Program-made: the position numbers and the translations under genes
Shown here: positions 3,021-55,365 of the stretch, one piece after another
Layout: each line of letters begins with the position of its first letter
Numbering within the stretch: the stretch's first letter is position 1
The notes under the pieces: model-generated
Database searches by the model: none
Told to the model about the DNA's origin: nothing
Seen by the model: the letters and a program-made list of their open reading frames with translations, nothing else
Source: Octopus vulgaris
Lineage: Eukaryota
Direction: 5' to 3'
Length of the DNA: 64,000 nucleotides
Assembly: GCA_951406725.2 (NCBI GenBank)
Contig: OX597829.1
Span: 40,982,001-41,046,000 of the forward strand

Positions 3021-3616
3021 GGCGACCTGGCAGAAACGTTAGCGCGCCGGGTGAAATGCTTAGCGGTATTTCGTCTGCCGCTACGTTCTGAGTTTAAATT
3101 CCGCCGAGTTCGACTTTGCCTTTCATCCTTTCGGGGTAGATTAAATAAGTACCAGTTACGCACTGGAGTCGATGTAATCGACTTAATCCGTATGTTTGTC
3201 CTTGTTTGTCCCCTCTATGTTTAGCCCCTTGTGGGTAATAAAGAAATAGGTATTTCGTCTGCCGCTACGTTCTGAGTTTAAATTCCGCCGAGTTTGACTT
3301 TGCCTTTCATCCTTTCGGGGTCGATTAAATAAGTACCAGTTACGCACTGGGGTCGATATAATCGACTTAATCCGTTTGTCTGTCCTTGTTTGTCCTCTCT
3401 GTGTTTAGCCCCTTGTGGGTAGTAAAGAAATAGGTATTTCGTCTGCCGTTACGTTCTGAGTTCAAATTCTGCCGAGGTCGACTTTGCCTTTCATCCTTTC
3501 GGGGTCGATTAAATAAGTACCAGTTACGCACTGGGGTCGAAATAATCGACTTAATCCCTTTGCTGGTCCTTGTTTGTCCCCTCTGTTTAGCCCCTTGTGG
3601 GTAGTAAAGAAATAGG
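3021..3616 (+). mobile_element. SINE family A trimer (one head plus three ~180-bp bodies)
   Basis: Units joined by AAGAAATAGG|TATTTCGTCTGCCG at about 3250 and 3434. Confidence 0.92.
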
Positions 3617-3619
3617 TGT

Positions 3620-4960: not shown

Positions 4961-6583
4961 CCAAGAATATTCTATCTTGAGCATCCTGTCCTTTAAGACC
5001 GAGAAACTTCTCTCGCTCCTTTAAGTTTTCTTCAGACCGTTTATCTTAAACTTATTCAAGCTATGCGTCAACTCTAAACCTAACCTATTTGCTTTTTATG
5101 CAGCAGCTACCCTTGAGTTTCCTATCCATCGATACTCTTAATATGTTTAACTGAAGAGGCCTAATAAGCTCGAAACATGTTAGTAGTAGTCCCTGTTCTG
5201 CCAAAGTTTTGATTGATGTATCACTTAAATTAAGCTCATCTAGACCCAACTGGTATGTCCTTTAATCGTTTATAAAAGCATTTTATGAATATTCAGTTAC
5301 TTTCTGTCAAAATGGCAGAAATTCGGTGTAACAAGAACGGTTAAGTGTTATATCGCTACAAATAAATGTTACATGCTGTATAAAAAGAAAGACTGAAACC
5401 CAGTAAAGGAGTTTCTTTCCTTTATCAAACCAAATAATTGAAACCCAGCAGGTGGGGTTCGATACTTGGTTGAAAACTGTTTCATTTCAATTCCGTCGCT
5501 AGTTTCTTCGTTAAGGCATGAACGCCAAAAAAAAGAAATGTAATTCTCACTCTAAAACATTTATTCTTTTCAGTTTGATCGAAATAATACAATTAAATAC
5601 GAGTTAAAACAGTTGGATTCGAAACTGCGTCGCTGTGAAGTGCATCACCAAGTTGGTGATCACTGTGACATTTGCTGAGTGTCACTATATTTTATTGATG
5701 TAATTTTCCAAAGACATTATTGGTCTGACAGAAGATTTTCTTACTAGAAGGATAGCCAGTAAAAAGAATGGCAGTTGCACAGTATATTCGCTGTGTGACA
5801 TAATCTTGTCTAATTTCCGATTCAAAGAAACACAGTGCTTAGCTGATGGCGATATTCAATACTCCGAAATGTATGCCCGATAGTTCCGCCTTTGATTCAG
5901 AGAATATCGTGCTTATTCGTCTATATGGATACTGCGTTCCTTTCCTGTCGACAGAGACTCCTGCAAATTACCCATATTTATGCAGTATTTGATGTTTTCT
6001 TTCCAAAATAGTCAAAGAGTAGGATCTTAAACCACTGCCTCGAAATTGCTTTCTTTAGATCTACTTTGCATCTGCTACTTTTATTTCGTTGATTGAATAA
6101 GCATCGTGTTTACTTTCCATTTTGAACTGAAAATTGCAACCTTCAGTCATAATATATCAACAACAAAAACACTATATCGAATAACTATATTATCTTTTCT
6201 TTTCTTTTCATTTTCTTTTTCTTCCACCCCATCCCCCACTCCATCCCCAACACTTCCAAATACATTGATAGATCTAAGAGTATTTAATAGTAGAATGTTC
6301 TGGAACTTTCCTGCATGTTAATTTATTATTTGAACTTATCTGTACTAATGGAGGCTTTCTTATTTATTTAGTTTTTCTTCTTTTGGAAGGTTTAGACTTT
6401 CGCTCATGGAATAAATTGGAATTAATTGAATAAATGCGGCTTAAATTCGATAGCAAAAATAAATTACGGTAAATTTAAACGCGATGATATTTCCATGTAT
6501 AACTCTTAAAGTTTTCAAAGTTTTAGAATTCGAGAAAAAAAAATTCTATTTGCATAGAAAGGTAATAATAACATCATCATCAT

Positions 6584-21495: not shown

Positions 21496-21911
21496 CTATT
21501 TCTTTATTGCCCACAAGGGGCTAAGCACAGAGAGGACAAACAAGGATAGACAAACGGATTAAGTCGATTACTTCGACCCGAGTGCGTAACTGGTACTTAA
21601 TTTATCGACCCCGAAAGGATGAAAGGCAAAGTCGACCTCGGCGGAATTTGAACTCAGAACGCAACGGCAGACGAAATACCTATTTCTTTACTACCCACAA
21701 GGGGCTAAACACAGGGAGGACAAACAAGGACAGACAAACGGATTAAGTCGACTACATCGACCCCAGTGCGTAACTGCTACTTAATTTATCGACCCCGAAA
21801 GGATGAAAGGCAAAGTCGACCTCGGCGGAATTTGAACTCAGAACGTAGCGGCAGACGAAATACGGCTATGCATTTCGCCGAGCGTGCTAACGTTTCTGCC
21901 AGCTCACCGCC
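21496..21911 (-). mobile_element. SINE family A dimer
   Basis: Junction GACGAAATACCTATTTCTT near 21670-21688. Confidence 0.92.
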
Positions 21912-26755: not shown

Positions 26756-27359
26756 GCGGCGAGCTGGCAGAATCGTTAGCACGCCGGGCGAAATGCGTAG
26801 CCGTATTCCGTCTGCCGTTACGTTCTGAGTTCAAATTCCGCCGAGGTCGACTTTGCCTTTCATCCTTTCGGGGTCGATTAAATAAGTACCAGTTACGCAC
26901 TGGGGTCGATGTAATCGACTTAATCCGTTTGTCTGTCCTTGTTTGTCCCCCCCCCTATGTTTAGCCCCTTGTGGGTAGTAAAGAAATAGGTATTTCGTCT
27001 GCCGTTGCGTTCTGAGTTCAAATTCCGCCGAGGTCGACTTTGCCTTTCATCCTTTCGGGGTCGATTAAATAAGTACCAGTTACGCACTGGGGTCGATGTA
27101 ATCGACTTAATCCGTTTGTCTGTCCTTGTTTGCCCCCCCCCTATGTTTAGCCCCTTGTGGGTAGTAAAGAAATAGGTATTTCGTCTGCCGTTGCGTTCTG
27201 AGTTCAAATTCCGCCGAGGTCGACTTTGCCTTTCATCCTTTCGGGGTCGATAAATTAAGTACCAATTACGCACTGGGGTCGATGTAATCGACTTAATCCC
27301 TTTGTCTGTCCTTGTTTCTCCCCTCTGTGTTTAGACCCTTGTGGGTAGTAAAGAAATAG
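26756..27359 (+). mobile_element. SINE family A trimer
   Basis: Two invariant junctions; AAAGACTGAAA on both flanks as a likely TSD remnant. Confidence 0.92.
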
Positions 27360-40806: not shown

Positions 40807-41440
40807 AACATTATTGGTGAATTGAAGAAATGGAGCTGAACACAGATTGAACAGAAATCGTTTTATTTCATTCTACACGTGTTTCGAAAGGCACAAATTA
40901 CCAAAATCCGATGGAATAATGGGACCATATTGTGTCTTTCTCTTCAGGAAGAAAATAGGAAATCCGTTGGAAAAACAAAAACAGAACAGAGGCGGAGCAA
41001 AAACAAATCGAACTATGCTCCTAAGAGCCCATGGCGAAACTGTTTACTGATAAACAGTTTCGCCATGGGCTCTTAGGAGCATAGTTCGATTTGTTTTTGC
41101 TCCGCCTCTGTTCTGTTTTTGTTTTTCCAACGGATTTCCTATTTTCTTCCTGAAGAGAAAGACACAATATGGTCCCATTATTCCATCGGATTTTGGTAAT
41201 TTGTGCCTTTCGAAACACGTGTAGAATGAAATAAAACGATTTCTGTTCAATCTGCGTTCAGCTCCATTTCTTCAATTCACCAATAATGTTCTAATTTCAA
41301 TTATCCGCACCAACGCACGGTTGCAACACCATATGGTTGTACCTCCAACCGTGCTGTTTTACTGCTGTGATTTTTGCTACTAAGGTATCGGTTAAACTTT
41401 TGATTAATCTACTACAAGATTATTCATCTTTCTATTTCAC
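40807..41440 (+). mobile_element. Penelope-type terminal-repeat insertion with a 240-bp inverted 5' duplication
   Basis: Arms 40807-41046 / 41051-41290, 4-nt spacer, one mismatch seen; right arm continues ~150 bp to (TA)n; contains a hammerhead followed by AATAAA. Confidence 0.8.
41147..41226 (+). ncRNA. Minimal type I hammerhead ribozyme, canonical core (mirror copy on minus strand 40871-40950)
   Basis: TTC-CTGAAGA-GAAAGACACAA..TTGTGCCTTTC-GAAA-CACGTG-TA-GAA: all core nucleotides present, long stem II, palindromic stem III, GUA site at 41221-41223. Confidence 0.8.
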
Positions 41441-42717: not shown

Positions 42718-43034
42718 GATGGACTCTCTCGTCGTTAGACGACGTATGAGGGTTCGATTATTTCTTATCGAACAACCACACAGATGATTTGTTTATAGTG
42801 ATCAAATGCTTGTGTAGACATAAGCTCATCCCCCCCCCCATCAAATCGACATTACCTGTACAGGTGTAACGAGTGCCACATAGCGGATGACGAAGTGATC
42901 GCAGAGCAACGTGAAATGATGTGCTTTGCTCAAGAACACAACGCAACGCCTTAACCCACTATCTCGCAATCGTGAGTGTAATACCTTAACCACTGATCCA
43001 AGCATCTTACATATGTGTGTGTGTGTGTGTATGC

Positions 43035-43073
<39 letters not shown>

Positions 43074-43084
43074 CATATTTATAT

Positions 43085-43270
43085 ATAAGGGGAAGGTTTA
43101 CGAAAATAAACAAAAGACGAAGGCAGGTGGAATACAAACAAACAATTGTATTAGTATGGCGCTCAGGAATAGAAATAAAACAAGTCTTTTACATTTCGAG
43201 CCTACGCTCTTCGACAGAAAGATACACAGAAAAGAAAAACAAAGAAAGAAACAAGGAGAGAAAAAAATGC
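43085..43270 (-). mobile_element. Short (TA)-abutting element carrying a variant hammerhead fold
   Basis: Diverged homologue of 50470-50592 (shared CTAATACA..CACCT..CTTCGTCTTTTGTTT). Confidence 0.7.
43185..43222 (-). ncRNA. Variant minimal hammerhead-like motif
   Basis: TCTTT-CTGTCGAA-GAGC-GTAG-GCTC-GAAA-TG-TA-AAAGA. Confidence 0.55.
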
Positions 43271-43344
43271 GTGTATGAGCTAACGGTCCAACATATGCAT
43301 ATATACACACATACATACATATACATTCACACACACACACACAC

Positions 43345-43565
43345 ACACTCACCACATATTTGTCCCCCACCACCGCTTAACAACTGGTGTTGGTGTGTTT
43401 ACGTCCCCATACCTTAGCGGCTCGGCAAAACAGACCGATAGAATAAGTACTCGGCTTAAGACAAAAAATAACAAAGTCCTGCGGTCGATTTGCTCGACTG
43501 ATAATCCTTCAAGGCGGTGCCCCATCATGGTCGCAGCCAACTGAGTGAAACAAGTAAAAGATAAA
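43345..43565 (+). mobile_element. SINE family B 3' half
   Basis: TGTCCCCCACCACCGCTT..GACCGATAGAATAAGTAC..GAAACAAGTAAAAGA. Confidence 0.8.
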
Positions 43566-43651
43566 AAGAAAAGATATGTACTGGAATTGATGCAATCGAC
43601 TAGGATAATCGCCCCAAATTTCAGACCGTGTGCCCATAACAGAAAGAATTA

Positions 43652-44332
43652 CCGTATTTGATGGCCTATAAGTTGCACCCTTTTTTTTTACCCAAAAATG
43701 GCTTAAACCCCTCCACCACTGTGTCCAATGCACTCAATGTAGGCTCAAAACTCAATGTAGGCTCAAAACTTAAAGTAGGCTCAAAGTTATACAGGTAAGT
43801 GGAGGCGAGCTGGCAGAAACGTTAGCACGCCGTGCGAAATGCATTGCGTAGCTATTTCGTCTGCCGTTACGTTCCGAGTTCAAATTCCGTCGAGGTCGAC
43901 TTTGTCTTTCATCCTTTCGGTGTCGATTAAATAAGTACCAGTTACGCACTGGGGTCGATATAATCGACTTAATCTGTTTGTCTCTCCTTGTTTGTCCCCT
44001 CTATGTTTAGCCCCTTGTGGGTAGTAAAGAAATAGGTATTTCGTCTGTCGTTACGTTCTGAGTTCAAATTCCGCCGAGGTCAACTTTGCCTTTCATCCTT
44101 TCGGTGTCGATTAAATAAGTACCAGTTACGCACTGGGGTCGATATAATCGACTTAATCCGTTTGTCTGTCCTTGTTTGTCCTCTCTGTGTTTAGCCCCTT
44201 GTGGGTAGTAAAGAAATAGGTAAGTGGAGGAATTAAAACATTATTTTAGAGGTAATTTATTTTACAAAAGTATAACCTAGGCTAAGGTGCGTCCTATGCA
44301 CCCGTGCGTCTTATATAGCCCATCAAATACGG
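43652..44332. mobile_element. Tc1/mariner-pogo type MITE with TA TSD, containing a nested SINE A dimer
   Basis: TA|CCGTATTTGATGG.CTATA ... TATAG.CCATCAAATACGG|TA; internal 18-bp triplicate at about 43732-43785. Confidence 0.8.
43804..44220 (+). mobile_element. SINE family A dimer
   Basis: Invariant junction near 44036; flanking direct repeat AGGTAAGTGGAGG at 43793-43805 and 44218-44230. Confidence 0.92.
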
Positions 44333-44740
44333 TAGATCAAGGTAATTTGCGTTAATTAATAATTCTCATTTAAAAAAATGTTTTTTATGTGTATAAAATG
44401 GATCGTTGCCTCCATTTGTAGTACCCATATTTTATTAGTTTAATAGAACTTGTTTTTTAATCTGTTATATTTTTATTTCTTACTCTTTCTCTCATTCCTA
44501 TGTTCAGAATACTAATGATAATCACAGATGCATATATATATATGGTTTTAATGAGTTCTTCCCCCCGGGTAGGGGTAGTTTACTGTAATTACTTAAAACA
44601 ATTTACTAATACATCTTGATCTACCTTTCATACATATTGTTAGTTTGTTATTCTCAGGTACACAGATTACAAATTATTTGCATTCGACATACCTTCTAGT
44701 ATGATTAGCAAATTTCACACGTGCGAAATCGTGTTCATAA

Positions 44741-44827
<87 letters not shown>

Positions 44828-44855
44828 TATTACTATTATTATTATTATTATTATT
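44741..44855. repeat. (AAT)n followed by inverted (ATT)n
   Basis: Direct reading. Confidence 0.95.
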
Positions 44856-45609
44856 GCTGAAGGCACTACACAGAATCTGTAGGAAGACAAGTGTCAATAA
44901 AAACCTGGTAATTGCTATTTCCACAGAAAAAATTAATTATCTTTTATAGAGAAATATTGTCTTTCAAATGTATTTTTCTGCTACCGGTGTCTGAGAGTGT
45001 TGGAAGGTTTCCTTCAGTCGCTTCTCAATGCCTCTTCTTCAAAGAACTTTTGTCTTTCTTCATTCTTCTCGCGCTCCGTCTTTCATTTTCTTTCTTTAGT
45101 TTTTTTTTGTTGTTGTTGTTTTTTTTCTTCCTTATGCGTTTCGCGGAATATCTAAACGACATTGTTTCTTCTTTCTTTTGTCTCGAGGGGTTGTGGTCAT
45201 TTCTTTGTAGTTTGAATTTATTCACTCGCCACCCGTCCAATAATTGTTTCCTATGTGAATAAAATATTTCCTTTTCTTCTTTATCTTTTTCTTATCTTAT
45301 CTTTTTTTTTTTTTTTTCGCGTTTCTCAAATCTCGGAAATCTATTCTCCAATAGCAATGAATCTGTGGATTCAATGTTAATTTTTCTGTTCTTGAACTAT
45401 TTCTTTATTTATTTAATTATTATTATTTTATATCATATTTGTTAAACATTACTTTTATTACTTACAAATTTCCAAAGCGCCTTTCACCAGTTCACTGCTT
45501 TCTTCTGCCAGAGAGAATGATAACGGGGGAGTCTCAGTAACTCGATGTAGAACAAATATAGCAAAGTGAACATCTTCAAAATATCTTTGAATATCTTAAA
45601 AAGTTGTAC

Positions 45610-45664
45610 GCATGCATACAAACATACATGCAGATATACATACATACGTACGTACGTACATACA

Positions 45665-45698
<34 letters not shown>

Positions 45699-45736
45699 CA
45701 TACGTACGAGCGTACATACATACCTACATACATACA

Positions 45737-45770
<34 letters not shown>

Positions 45771-45908
45771 CATACATGCATGCATACATACATACATACA
45801 TACATATATATATACATACATATATACATACATATATACATACATACATGCATGCATACATACATACATACGTACGTACGTACGTACATGCATACATACA
45901 TACATACA

Positions 45909-45942
<34 letters not shown>

Positions 45943-46060
45943 CATACCTACATACATACATACATACATACATAAATACATACATACATACATACATAAA
46001 TACATACATACATACATACATTCATACATACATACATACATGCATGCATGCATGCGTGCA
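45610..46060. repeat. Degenerate (TACA)n microsatellite
   Basis: Direct reading. Confidence 0.95.
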
Positions 46061-46074
46061 AACACAAAAATGCG

Positions 46075-46195
46075 TTAGAAAATGTCGACGGGACTATAAC
46101 TGTGTGGAAGACATTGCCCATATTCTCAGCGGCTGTCCAAGTATATCAGCAAAATACTACATTCCCATGGGGCATGACATAGTCGACAATCTCAA
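46075..46195 (+). mobile_element. Tiny remnant of an RLE-type non-LTR element (R2/R4/Dong-like zinc knuckle region)
   Basis: KCRRDYNCVEDIAHILSGCPSISAKYYIPMGHDIV resembles CxxC..E...HI.SGC......Y..RHD. Confidence 0.6.
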
Positions 46196-46333
46196 CAATC
46201 AAGAATTCTTCCAAAGTAGACACGAGTTCCCGCCTCAACAGACGTCATCAGTGTGATAATTGTCCTAACCTATGCTACCGACGAAACTGAATCATTTTCC
46301 TGCGCTTTTTTTTTTTTTTTTTTGGCAAATTTA

Positions 46334-46750
46334 GGCGCAGGCGTGGCTGTGTGGTAAGAAGCTCGCTTCCCTACCACATGGTTCCGGGTTCAGTGTCACA
46401 GCGTGGCAAATGTATTCTACTATAGCCTCAGGCCGACCAAAGCTTTGCGAGTGGATTTGGTAGACAAAAACTGAGAGATGCCAGTCGTGTGTGTGTGTGT
46501 GTGTGTGTGTGTGTTTACACCTGTGTGAGCTCTATGAGTCTGTGTTTGTTCTCACCATCACCACCACTGCTTGACAACCCGTATTGGTGTGTTTACTTCC
46601 CCTGTAACTTAGTGGTTCGGCAAAGAGATCGATAGAATAAGTGCCAAGCTTTTAAAAAAAGTACTGGGGTCGATTCATTCGACTAAAAATTCTTCAAGAC
46701 GGTGCCCCAGTATGGCCGTAGTCTAATAACTGAAACAAATAAAAGATAAA
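46334..46750 (+). mobile_element. SINE family B, diverged full length
   Basis: Head, internal (GT)n, tail. Confidence 0.87.
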
Positions 46751-47169
46751 TTACCAAGGCTATGAATGTGTTCCATTCTTCTCACATTAAATCAATCTCT
46801 CTTAACTATTGGAGATAAGATGACACAACTGCTGTGCTGATGAAGCTTATCGAGGCAGAAAGCCGTGTCCAGAACTATCTTCTTATCTCCTGGCAACAAG
46901 GCTATCCTTTTCCTAAATGTAGAGTCAGACAGGGAGAAACTCTTGAATCTCGAGGTTACCTCCCCTTCTCCTATGGAGCTGGTCTTAACTGCTATTTGGT
47001 AAGTACGGTACATCCTCTTGAAACTGGAACGCCTTTAATAGATGAAGAATTCGTTTTGTATGGTATTTCATAAACCTGTAGCTGTCGACGTTGTGATCTT
47101 TTTCTGTCTGTTTTCTTTATTGTTTCAGCTAGAATCTTCTTAAAGATATCTCTCTGGTTGATATTTGTT

Positions 47170-47712
47170 GCGGCGGCAGCGGCGGCGGATGCGGAGGAGG
47201 AGGCAGCGGCGGCAGCGCCGGAGAGGCAGCGGCGGCAGCGGCGGCGGTGGCGGCGGCGGATGCGGCGGCGGCGGCGGCGGCGGCAGCGGCGGCAGCGGCG
47301 GCGGCGGCGGCAGCGGCGGCAGCGGCGGCAGCGGCGGCAGCGGCGGCAGCGGCGGCAGCGGCGGCAGCGGCGGCAGCGGCGGCAGCGGCGGCAGCGGCGG
47401 CAGCGGCGGCAGCGGCGGCAGCGGCGGCAGCGGCGGCAGCGGCGGCAGCGGCGGCAGCGGCGGCAGCGGCGGCAGCGGCGGCAGCGGGGGCAGCGGCGGC
47501 AGCGGCGGCAGCGGCGGCAGCGGCGGCAGCGGCGGCAGCGGCGGCAGCGGCGGTATTGGCGGCAGCGGCGGCAGCGGCGGCAGCGGCGACATCGGCGACG
47601 GCGGCGACGGCGGCGACAGCGGCGGCAGCGGCGGCGGCGGTGGCGGTGGTGGTGGTGGTGGTGGTGGCGGCGGCGGCGGCGATGAAAATCGCAGTCGTCG
47701 TCGTCGTCGTGG
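47170..47712. repeat. GC-rich 9-bp minisatellite (GGCGGCAGC)n with GGC/GGT/GTC flanks
   Basis: More than 25 tandem 9-mers; open in several frames because the repeat has no stop codons. Confidence 0.95.
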
Positions 47713-47824
47713 ATAAAAGATGTTATTTCAGGACAAATACTCCAATGACTGACCTATCGACATTGCGTACACATTAAGTATGATACTTAGATAGCTATTT
47801 TAATAAAATTCTACCTTATAAAGT

Positions 47825-47855
<31 letters not shown>

Positions 47856-48037
47856 CGTATGTATGTATGTATGTATGTATGTATGTATGTATGTATGTAT
47901 GCATGTATGTATGTATGTATGTATGTATGTATGTATGTATGTATGTATGTATGTATGTATGCGTGTATATATAACAGAGTGGCTTCAACAGTGCGGTTAT
48001 CGTTCTTATTCTGTTTTGTAAGATACTGTATTTTTTT

Positions 48038-48074
<37 letters not shown>

Positions 48075-48679
48075 GAGTGGCGGGCGGGGGGGGGGGCGAG
48101 AGTCGGGTTGCCTGTTTCTGTGTCCATCGTTGTTATTGAATGGTTTCCGATGAGATCTTTTGTTTCTTTTACGTTGTCTTTTTATAGAGCATTGGCCATG
48201 ATTTTATCGTATTATTTTTTTTAATTCTATTTATTCATTTTTTAGCTTTTTTTTTCCCCTTCTTTGGCCTATTTTTTTTTTCTTTTCTTTTCTTTTCCTG
48301 TGACGTATCGTATCTTGTTTTGAGTTACTGGGATGTTTGTGATTCAATATTTGTTCTACTGAAATATATTATTTTTTTTTTCTGGTTTCGGTTCATTTGT
48401 TCTATATCCTTTTTTACTACTTTTCTCGAGACGTAAAACTAGAATTACTTTCTTTTCTGACGTTTTTCTGGGGTTTTTTTTTTTTTTTTTTTTTTTTAAG
48501 CCAAGGCTCGTTGATTACAAGCGATATTATTTCAGAGAGCCTGTTTATCTCGTCTCGGTTTGGTAATCTAGGTGTTTCGCATGTTGAATGAATCGTTTCG
48601 TTGGAGTTGTTTCCTGCTTCGTTATCGTTCAAAAGTTGTTGAACATACAGTGATATTACACACACACACACACACACAC

Positions 48680-48712
<33 letters not shown>

Positions 48713-48735
48713 CGTTTATGCACGCACGCAAGAAA

Positions 48736-48784
<49 letters not shown>

Positions 48785-48923
48785 TATCTCAAATACACAC
48801 ATATCTTATTATAAGGAGCTAAACTCTCCTATATGCAAACCACGTATCTACCAATATTTCGAATGATATCACTACGCCGATGCGCATGTAACTACATACA
48901 CACGGACATTTACATACAAAGTA

Positions 48924-48964
<41 letters not shown>

Positions 48965-48975
48965 TGTGTGTGTTT

Positions 48976-49042
<67 letters not shown>

Positions 49043-49303
49043 ATACACTCGTGACCTAGTGGTTTGGCGTGTTGTGTTCTTGGGCAAAAAAAAAACACGC
49101 GTTGTGTTCTTGTGTTGGTCCGGTCCAATCAGCTGTAGATGGGTGACTCTGAGACAGAGCAGCCAGCCTTCCAATAAGTGGCAAATGTTGGGGCCTACTC
49201 ACCTAGCCAGCAGAGCGGCATCATCGATGCAAAGCTAAATCAATGCAAAGCGCATTGTCTCCAGCGATGTATAATAACATCCGATAGTCTAAGCGATCAT
49301 GCG

Positions 49304-49356
<53 letters not shown>

Positions 49357-49426
49357 AAGGTTAGTTAAGTTAGAGATTAAAATAACCATCTAAGGGATAG
49401 AAGTATTCATTACACTACCGGTATAT

Positions 49427-49836
49427 TCTCTTTACTCTTTACTCTTTTACTTGTTTCAGTCATTTGACTGCGGCCATGCTGGAGCACCGCCTTTTAGTCG
49501 AGCAAATCGACCCCGGGACCTATTCTTTGTAAGCCCAGTACTTATTCTATCGGTCTCTTTTGCCGAACCGCTAAGTGACGGGGACGTAAACACACCAGCA
49601 TCGGTTGTCAAGCAGTGCTAGGGGGACAAACACAGACACACAAACACACATATATATATGTACACATATATACGACAGGCTTCTTTCAGTTTCCGTCTAC
49701 CAAATCCACTCACAAGGCATTGGTCGGCCCGGGGCTATAGCAGAAGACACTTGCCCAAGATGCCACGCAGTGGGACTGAACCCGGAACCATGTGGTTGGC
49801 TAGCAAGCTACTTACCACACAGCCACTCCTGCGCCT
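49427..49836 (-). mobile_element. SINE family B, full length
   Basis: Complete head to (AAAGAGT)n tail. Confidence 0.92.
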
Positions 49837-49936
49837 ATGTTCAACTATAGGCATACATATACAAGCATATTATGCTTAATAAATTATAGTTAACAACAAG
49901 GATAAACATGAGTTTATCAAGAATCAAAGTTTAAAG

Positions 49937-50060
49937 AAAACAGAAAATGGAAATAATGTAGATATGAGCAACAATTGACTTACATCAATTAAATAAAAAA
50001 ATAAATAATAAATAATGTAAGTCAATTGTTGTTCATCAATACTTCTCCATTTTCTATTTT
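49937..50060. repeat. Imperfect AT-rich palindrome
   Basis: ATGAGCAACAATTGACTTACAT / ATGTAAGTCAATTGTTGTTCAT; outer AGAAAATGGA / TCCATTTTCT. Confidence 0.75.
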
Positions 50061-50069
50061 ATTTAAATA

Positions 50070-50453
50070 CTAGCAGTATCGCCCGGCGTTGCTCGGGTTT
50101 GTAAGGGAAATAACTATAAAGCATTTTTAGAGAGTTATAGCCAAACAATAGCAAAAAAATGGGAAAAAAAATTATGGTAAATTTTTTTTTGATAGTTAAA
50201 AAGGTCGAGTTGCGTCCCCTAGACCATCTGTGGTTTGTGATTCTGATTGTCGACCCCATGTCGAATTTATCGATCTTTTTCAGAACTGGGGGAACTTTTC
50301 AAAATTTTCGCTGCGTTAGTTTTGAATTATGACATTGGGCTATGTGTGTGTCAAGTTTCATCAGAATCGGTTGAAAGCCGTGGTCAGGGTGAGGGTACAA
50401 GCAAACAGACACACAGAAACACACACAGACAAACTGCCGTTTATATAGAGAGA
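50070..50453 (-). mobile_element. Non-autonomous Helitron (H3: H1-type 3' end, H2-like 5' end)
   Basis: First ~70 bp on + nearly identical to 9510-9580; other end GCCGTTTATATAGAGAGA resembles 32260-32281; A|T target. Confidence 0.85.
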
Positions 50454-50485
50454 TATGTATATTTATTTATTTATTTTCTCTTATT

Positions 50486-50523
50486 CCTTTCTGTTGAAGA
50501 ACGTATGTTCGAAACGTAAAAGG
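50486..50523 (+). ncRNA. Variant minimal hammerhead-like motif
   Basis: CCTTT-CTGTTGAA-GAAC-GTAT-GTTC-GAAA-CG-TA-AAAGG. Confidence 0.6.
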
Positions 50524-50610
50524 CTTTCTCACTTTCCCGAGCATCAAACTAATACATCTGCTTGTTGTTCATACACCTATCTTCGTCTTTTGTTTTCTAT
50601 AAATTTCAAC

Positions 50611-50687
<77 letters not shown>

Positions 50688-50693
<6 letters not shown>

Positions 50694-52168: not shown

Positions 52169-52938
52169 TATTTCTTTATTGCCCACAAGGGGCTAAACAT
52201 AGAGAGGACAAACAAAGACAGACAAAGGGATTAAGTTGATTACATCGACCCCAGTGCGTAACTGGTACTTAATTTATCGACCACGAAAGGATGAAAGGCA
52301 ATGTCGACCTCAGCGGAATTTGAACTCAGAACGTAACGGCAGACGAAATACCTATTTCTTTACTACCCACAAGGGGCTAAACACAGAGGGGACAAACAAG
52401 GACAAACGGATTAAGTCGATTATATCGACCCAGTGCGTAACTGGTACTTATTTAATCGACGCCGAAAGGATAAAAGGCAAAGTCGACCTCGGCGGAATTT
52501 GAACTCAGAACGTAACGGCAGACGAAATACCTATTTCTTTACTACCCACAAGGGGCTAAACACAGAGGGGACAAACAGGGACAAACGGATTAAGTCGATT
52601 ATATCGACCCCAGTGCGTAACTGGTACTTATTTAATCGACGCCGAAAGGATAAAAGGCAAAGTCGACCTCGGCGGAATTTGAACTCAGAACGTAACGGCA
52701 GACGAAATACCTATTTCTTTACTACCCACAAGGGGCTAAACACAGAGGGGACAAACAAGGACAAACGGATTAAGTCGATTATATCGACCCCAGTGCGTAA
52801 CTGGTACTTATTTAATCGACGCCGAAAGGATGAAAGGCAAAGTCGACCTCGGCGGAATTCGAACTCAGAACGTAACGACAGAAGAAATACCGCTAAGCAT
52901 TTCGCCCGGTGTGCTAACGTTTCTGCCAGCTTGCCGCC
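52169..52938 (-). mobile_element. SINE family A tetramer
   Basis: Three invariant junctions; flanking AGTTT(T/C)CAATGTTTCT direct repeat. Confidence 0.93.
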
Positions 52939-55038: not shown

Positions 55039-55365
55039 GCATCTTTTCGCTTTGACCGGCAGATTTTTAAAATAATTTCTTTGTAACTAAACACTTTTAA
55101 ACTTCGTATACTGGTAGTGTGTTACATAAAATATCTTTTTCTCTTGGTTTTCTTGAGAAAATTCTGTAGTTTGTAAGCTATTTGTTGTTTAAATTGCCGA
55201 AATGCAAGAAATTAAACAACAAATAGCTTACAAACTACAGAATTTTCTCAAGAAAGCCAAGAGAAAAAGATGTTTTATGTAACACCCTACCAGTATACGA
55301 AGTTTAAAAGTGTTTAGTTACAAAGAAATTATTTTAAAAATCTGCCGGTCAAAGCGAAAAGATCC
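55039..55365. mobile_element. Fully palindromic derivative of the GGATC-TIR MITE (two right halves head to head)
   Basis: ~155-bp arms; TSD GTTTGACC at 55031-55038 and 55366-55373. Confidence 0.9.

Follow-up and report, generated by a model that had tools for sequence, protein, structure and literature searches.

A hammerhead motif with U at position 6 in a Penelope-like retroelement lineage of Octopus vulgaris

Two variant hammerhead motifs in the window

The 64-kb stretch of Octopus vulgaris DNA analysed here (the window; assembly GCA_951406725.2, contig OX597829.1, positions 40,982,001 to 41,046,000) contains two copies of a 38-nt minimal type I hammerhead motif in which the A at position 6 of the ribozyme core (A6) is replaced by U (U6). 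Judged from their sequence, these motifs are almost certainly the 5'-truncated 3' ends of a single autonomous lineage of Penelope-like elements (PLEs). Both strings were confirmed at 50486-50523 on the plus strand and 43185-43222 on the minus strand, where a first-pass annotation had placed them, and a relaxed hammerhead scan of the window returned these two motifs as its sole matches. U at position 6, an extra A after A9 and a 2-nt stem III insert were present in both copies, and TA runs lie approximately 90-100 nt downstream of both motifs, all as originally described. The features of the two sites are as follows; cut sites were placed by the hammerhead consensus, and LTR stands for long terminal repeat.

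50470..50612, plus strand: copy A, a 5'-truncated PLE 3' end (pseudo-LTR fragment) of the old subfamily A
50486..50523, plus strand: minimal type I hammerhead of copy A, U6 at 50494, predicted cut after 50518
50611..50693, no strand: (TA)n run bordering copy A on its 3' side, the likely insertion target
43088..43294, minus strand: copy B, a 5'-truncated PLE 3' end of the younger subfamily B (by clustering)
43185..43222, minus strand: minimal type I hammerhead of copy B, U6 at 43214, predicted cut after 43190
43014..43088, no strand: short TA run and CA microsatellite bordering copy B on its 3' side

The flanks of the two copies had been called clearly diverged; in fact homology between copies A and B extends over 114 nt or more (75% identity), and they represent two subfamilies of one element. 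Members of subfamily A average about 9% divergence from their consensus, and the copy A hammerhead is set apart by changes private to it, in stem II, in loop II and at the outer position of stem I. Copy B shares 84% identity with the 3' end of a full-length unit, L152, and its C15.2 has decayed to U, giving an AUGU stem III that is a minority form (C in 49 of 54 copies). Because the copies lie on opposite strands 7.3 kb apart, pairing between them within one transcript is impossible. No tandem array was found at either copy, and both are predicted to be inactive, solitary fossils. No hammerhead appeared among the 150 listed of 315 Rfam matches in the window, nor at gathering level in four loci; since these loci included canonical A6 sisters, the Rfam result is uninformative.

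The two-copy comparison had been offered as evidence for a selected RNA structure, on the ground that stems I and II showed compensatory changes. The stem II pair in question is G-C in all seven subfamily consensuses and A-U in copy A. Across the genome, 21 matches distributed over all four N7 types have A-U, against 331 with the unpaired A·C, and about 13 A-U doubles are expected by chance (the C-to-T single change, counted by hand, occurs in 4 among the first 100 U6 matches listed). The outer position of stem I is mismatched (C·A) in subfamily A, with G in only 3 of 36 copies, so that the G of copy A is a private change, whereas subfamily B is U-A in 22 of 23 copies. Covariation between the two copies was rejected on these counts: the apparent compensation is chance, post-insertion noise that results from setting a decayed old copy against a younger one. 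The claim of selection itself survives on other evidence, namely the conservation of columns described below.

The host element

Longer copies of the lineage continue upstream into remnants of a GIY-YIG endonuclease. A protein search with the endonuclease remnant gave 5,219 candidates, of which 150 were scored and 90 of those 150 examined; the 3' end of the lineage was found downstream at 60 of these 90 endonuclease-selected loci (hand count, plus-strand matches). Long open reading frames (ORFs) carry the motifs PADKGG, GVAMG, YIDD and CSRPRCRTC, and CxxC inside GIY-YIG. A PLE-type reverse transcriptase (RT) domain is indicated by a Pfam RVT_1 match (E=1.7e-7) together with the DKG and YIDD motifs, and the linker between RT and endonuclease (EN), CSRPRCRTC, fits the pattern CX2-5CxxC (as CX4CxxC). 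The C-terminal GIY-YIG domain with internal cysteines was recognised by motif reading, from CSLCHSLYIGQT and ..RE..LI..L..F.P.GLN in the ORFs; the Pfam scan gave no GIY-YIG match. By domain order and motifs, the element is an EN+ PLE of the Neptune/Nematis type. According to Craig et al. 2021 (PMC8557442), elements of these clades share the RT, the CX2-5CxxC linker and the C-terminal GIY-YIG with internal cysteines, and also form partial tandems and show a bias towards insertion in microsatellites.

Partial tandems forming pseudo-LTRs were seen at 2 of 20 long loci, L152 and L161. In L152, a full-length partial-tandem unit, 4.4 kb separate the hammerheads. The motif lies in non-coding DNA, and the ORF appears to begin approximately 750 nt downstream of the hammerhead. 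The linked autonomous parent that the first-pass annotation had proposed to look for therefore exists, as an ORF-bearing PLE with the hammerhead in its pseudo-LTR, and what had been suggested to be undescribed mini-retroelement families are its truncated ends.

Most copies are short: their 5' ends, which are scattered, lie at a median of 88 nt upstream of the cut (n=44). In 46 of the 59 U6 copies whose 3' end could be recognised, TATA follows. At one locus, L152 (G000:C5:3795100-3803100, minus strand), the first pseudo-LTR junction reads from tail to TATATA to the 5' region of the element, so a TA target or priming site may be part of the element itself at the point where copies terminate. A four-codon ATG...CGY-stop lies about 90-110 nt upstream of the cut and is kept across U6 subfamilies (for example in L062, L065, L073 and L162); 5' truncations cluster near it, with 18 of 44 ends falling 75-100 nt upstream of the cut.

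Two other accounts of the motif were rejected. Coding constraint, with N7 as the third base of a GTN codon, was dismissed because stops occur in or near the L152 motif in all three frames and the ORF appears to start well downstream of it. A non-LTR retrozyme, consisting of short non-coding tandem repeats with a hammerhead in each, does not describe copies that lie dispersed, differ in where they are truncated and run on into an ORF. A splice acceptor in the hammerhead core was also unsupported, with no joints or loose ends seen among the RNA rows shown.

Position 6 is U throughout the lineage

First-look candidates numbered 5,108 in a search of the 2.8-Gb genome. Exact matches to the U6 core came to 22,975, against 2 for a reversed control. 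Position 6 was then tallied in 54 copies from endonuclease-selected loci, a choice of loci that makes the tally blind to the ribozyme: 48 copies have U, four have C and two have A, and U stands in every U6 consensus. The consensus is therefore U and not A, as had been read from the window pair. The A required at position 6 of the PLE minimal type I hammerhead is absent, and the motif is accordingly classed as a variant. U is the majority letter also in organism B reads and organism A contigs.

The A6 form with the same spacing had 745 matches; many of those retrieved sit in U6-lineage flanks and have the appearance of single mutants. Sister families with A6, the same stem II, a related tail and a 3-nt loop had 6,730 matches, and U6 with a 3-nt loop had 72. 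The A6 sister copies with a 3-nt loop showed no endonuclease upstream, so their link to the lineage rests on motif and tail. When a tree was built without positions 6, 7 and 17 and with two A6 outgroups, the U6 subfamilies formed one ladder-like clade (bootstrap 100). From subfamily to subfamily, mean divergence from consensus runs from 11% down to 2.7%. By these sequence comparisons, the change from A6 to U is fixed across the lineage while sister families keep A6.

Canonical A6 minimal hammerheads were seen in several sister PLE-like families with a differing loop II or stem II (L092, L105, L125, L095 and L103). Another abundant repeat carries an A6 hammerhead with a GACAC/GUGUU stem I and a long stem II (L022, L098, L100, L107, L114 and L117).

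Selection on the motif after the change

In the seven consensuses the core positions C3 U4 G5, G8 A9, G12 A13 A14 and A15.1-U16.1 are invariant, and G is never found at H17, which is A or U. The extra nucleotide 9/10.1, the G10.1-C11.1 pair and the palindromic 15.2-16.2 are all present. Mapped on the tree, at least 4 changes fall at N7 and 2 at H17; the remaining 34 columns of the hammerhead have none, and the 89 columns of the tail have 39. About 15 changes would be expected in the 34 columns from the tail rate (Fisher P=1e-5), and tail divergence between U6 subfamilies reaches 29%. Since only N7 and H17, the free positions of a hammerhead, have changed, the motif has stayed under selection after A6 was lost, and we regard this restriction as real sequence evidence for a selected structure. 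Covariation emerged only at the wider scale of U6 and A6 families together: across 16 U6 and A6 copies, 6 of 9 stem pairs changed on both sides, and the covariation score of this set was reached by none of 500 shuffles, a significance inflated by related rows.

A YGAGCGY-like motif approximately 20-30 nt after the cut (50538-50543 in the window) is kept in U6 and A6 families and could pair with the ACGU palindrome. Its candidacy as an anti-ribozyme strand was dropped, as it fails to follow the stem II changes in GGAC/GTCC families.

Comparison with described systems

The first-pass annotation had named a PLE-associated minimal hammerhead variant as one possibility, and the motif does fit the published features. 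As set out by Cervera and de la Pena 2014 (PMC4209133), metazoan PLE minimal hammerheads have an extra nucleotide after A9 (9/10.1), G10.1-C11.1, a palindromic 15.2-16.2 without a stem III loop, a 4-bp stem I, a U-rich 5' flank and NUH at the cut, are explained by a dimer model, and occur in pseudo-LTRs and mostly as solitary truncated copies; the octopus motif resembles them in each of these respects. They differ at position 6, which is A there and U in the octopus lineage: the published consensus is CUGANGAH, and a core variant described there is U3-A8. Of the peculiarities noted in the window, the extra A, the reduced stem III and the need for a dimer were thus already known, whereas A6 to U departs from the consensus. 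Judging by its title and by reviews that cite it, Lünse, Weinberg and Breaker 2017 likewise concerns small hammerhead variants with a diminished stem III, cleavage as dimers and association with PLEs.

The nearest parallel at position 6 is the A6C hammerhead of phage Bcep176 (Perreault 2011, PMC3088659; Naghdi 2020, PMC7151607), which also has a natural pyrimidine at this position. It is a single sequence with C and has measured activity, whereas the octopus lineage has U, more than 20,000 copies and a minimal PLE hammerhead predicted from sequence. The green anole Poseidon element PAc (Frangieh et al. 2024, PMC11167929) is alike in its pseudo-LTR hammerhead, in an element end downstream of it and in an AT-rich target; it belongs to a different PLE clade, and its ORF overlaps the hammerhead, unlike the apparent start downstream of it in L152. 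No natural A6U hammerhead was found in the literature covered, which excluded the survey of Lünse 2017 and one supplement file of PMC4209133.

What may be new is the change from A6 to U; because the architecture, the host element and the dimer model are already known, the gain is modest. The lineage altered a core base that mutagenesis calls important, out-amplified its A6 sisters, as measured in exact matches, and still preserved all other parts of the hammerhead pattern across some eight subfamilies, which bears on the role of hammerheads in PLEs. Descriptors restricted to CUGANGA miss tens of thousands of motifs in this one genome.

Does the U6 hammerhead cut?

On the sequence evidence, the U6 hammerhead is on balance probably a ribozyme that works, though weakened, and remains under selection. 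In the mechanism envisaged, the GIY-YIG endonuclease of the element would nick AT-rich DNA, by analogy with the anole element (Frangieh 2024), and transcripts of tandem units would start from the upstream pseudo-LTR and undergo target-primed reverse transcription. Most of this RNA would be uncut, and RT, beginning approximately 95 nt to the 3' side of the hammerhead, would leave short copies like the window pair. The two hammerheads of a tandem transcript would pair via the ACGU palindrome and putatively cut slowly after H17, possibly helped by the protein of the element or by a metal such as Mn2+. The narrower proposal, that a natural, lineage-fixed A6U hammerhead has kept its activity on condition that the protein of the element, a dimer partner or Mn2+ is present, is put forward tentatively, as something we would sooner doubt than assert. 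If true, the motif would act as an evolved throttle under which most RNA stays uncut and can serve as template, and comparing U6 families with their A6 sisters would amount to a natural experiment on why PLEs retain hammerheads.

Published biochemistry points to a loss of speed when position 6 is changed. The natural A6C hammerhead is slow in Mg2+ and active in Mn2+ (PMC7151607; PMC3088659). Cutting by PLE hammerheads is slow in vitro, and the anole hammerhead cut only with protein present (PMC11167929). Co-folding gave ACGU pairs between copies in 5 of 6 U6 copies, copy B being the exception.

Several results weigh against a working ribozyme. From C1-C10, 150 TA-adjacent 5' junctions were called and 77 clean ones modelled, with ambiguous subfamily assignment; these were 3.2-fold denser downstream of the cut (P=9e-6), but a linear length trend, which is expected because copies are mostly short, fits them equally (21.4 vs 19.6), and a step at the cut adds 0.55 on top of it. 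Stem I is weak in full context, with a pair probability of 0.00-0.01 in 5 of 6 U6 copies and 0.61 in one. RNA reads continue through the site, and no place showed a pile-up of read starts or ends in three organism B RNA runs, for which about 6% of the reads of each run were used (site depth about 1,400-2,100) and one mapping was blind to 3' products, its reference tail being mismatched to organism B. This null is weak, since the libraries look unstranded, the reads should derive mostly from solitary old copies, and a canonical PLE hammerhead, that of the anole element, is reported to give the same result, with RNA-seq ends at the cut likewise unseen (PMC11167929). In pairwise mutagenesis of another hammerhead, all single and double mutants of CUGA had low activity except the C3:G8 swap (PMC9901934). 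Finally, within the U6 clade there is zero covariation and loop II is invariant, and a loop II and stems frozen in this way would fit equally a sequence read by a protein or a promoter site.

The last point leads to the strongest rival, which we consider rather unlikely: that U6 killed catalysis and the motif is kept as a fold or sequence read by the protein of the element, or as part of the pseudo-LTR promoter. Besides the invariance of loop II and both stems, it can draw on the low activity of CUGA mutants, on the RNA read ends missing from the cut in the organism B runs, on the U6 lineage exceeding its A6 sisters in exact matches, and on the observation that catalytic hammerhead mutants leave PLE insertion in vitro unimpaired, cutting being dispensable in that one reconstituted system (PMC11167929). 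It is less at ease with N7 and H17 as the sole varying columns and with H17 avoiding G, for the NUH rule need not bind a mere binding site; the chance of hitting precisely these two columns is 1/630, or 0.024 with loop II also free.

The opposite possibility, that U6 is fully tolerated because a tertiary contact, for instance from the GUAG loop II, restores normal PLE-hammerhead activity, seems improbable. U6 and the GUAG loop do co-occur, as the scarcity of U6 among 3-nt loops (72 vs 6,730 for A6) illustrates, and GUAG is invariant in the seven consensuses while the loop varies in A6 sister families. U6 and GUAG both arose on one long branch, though, and so count as a single event and not as independent covariation, and no double mutant rescued the CUGA motif of the other hammerhead tested by mutagenesis (PMC9901934). 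An undescribed family of ribozyme-tipped mini-retroelements separate from PLEs, which the shortness of most copies might suggest, is very improbable: 5' ends are scattered, longer copies run into the PLE ORF, and the compensations offered in its support are chance. A weakened, still selected ribozyme remains our preferred reading.

Other observations in the window

A degraded hammerhead-like motif with A6 and an imperfect stem II lies at 5151-5185 on the plus strand. Two long, near-perfect inverted repeats occur at 40970-41127 and 55131-55273, where Rfam microRNA matches were far below the gathering score. A 180-186-bp repeat forms five short arrays, at 3065-3617, 21496-21863, 26803-27359, 43849-44222 and 52169-52891, with units that are 94-96% identical.

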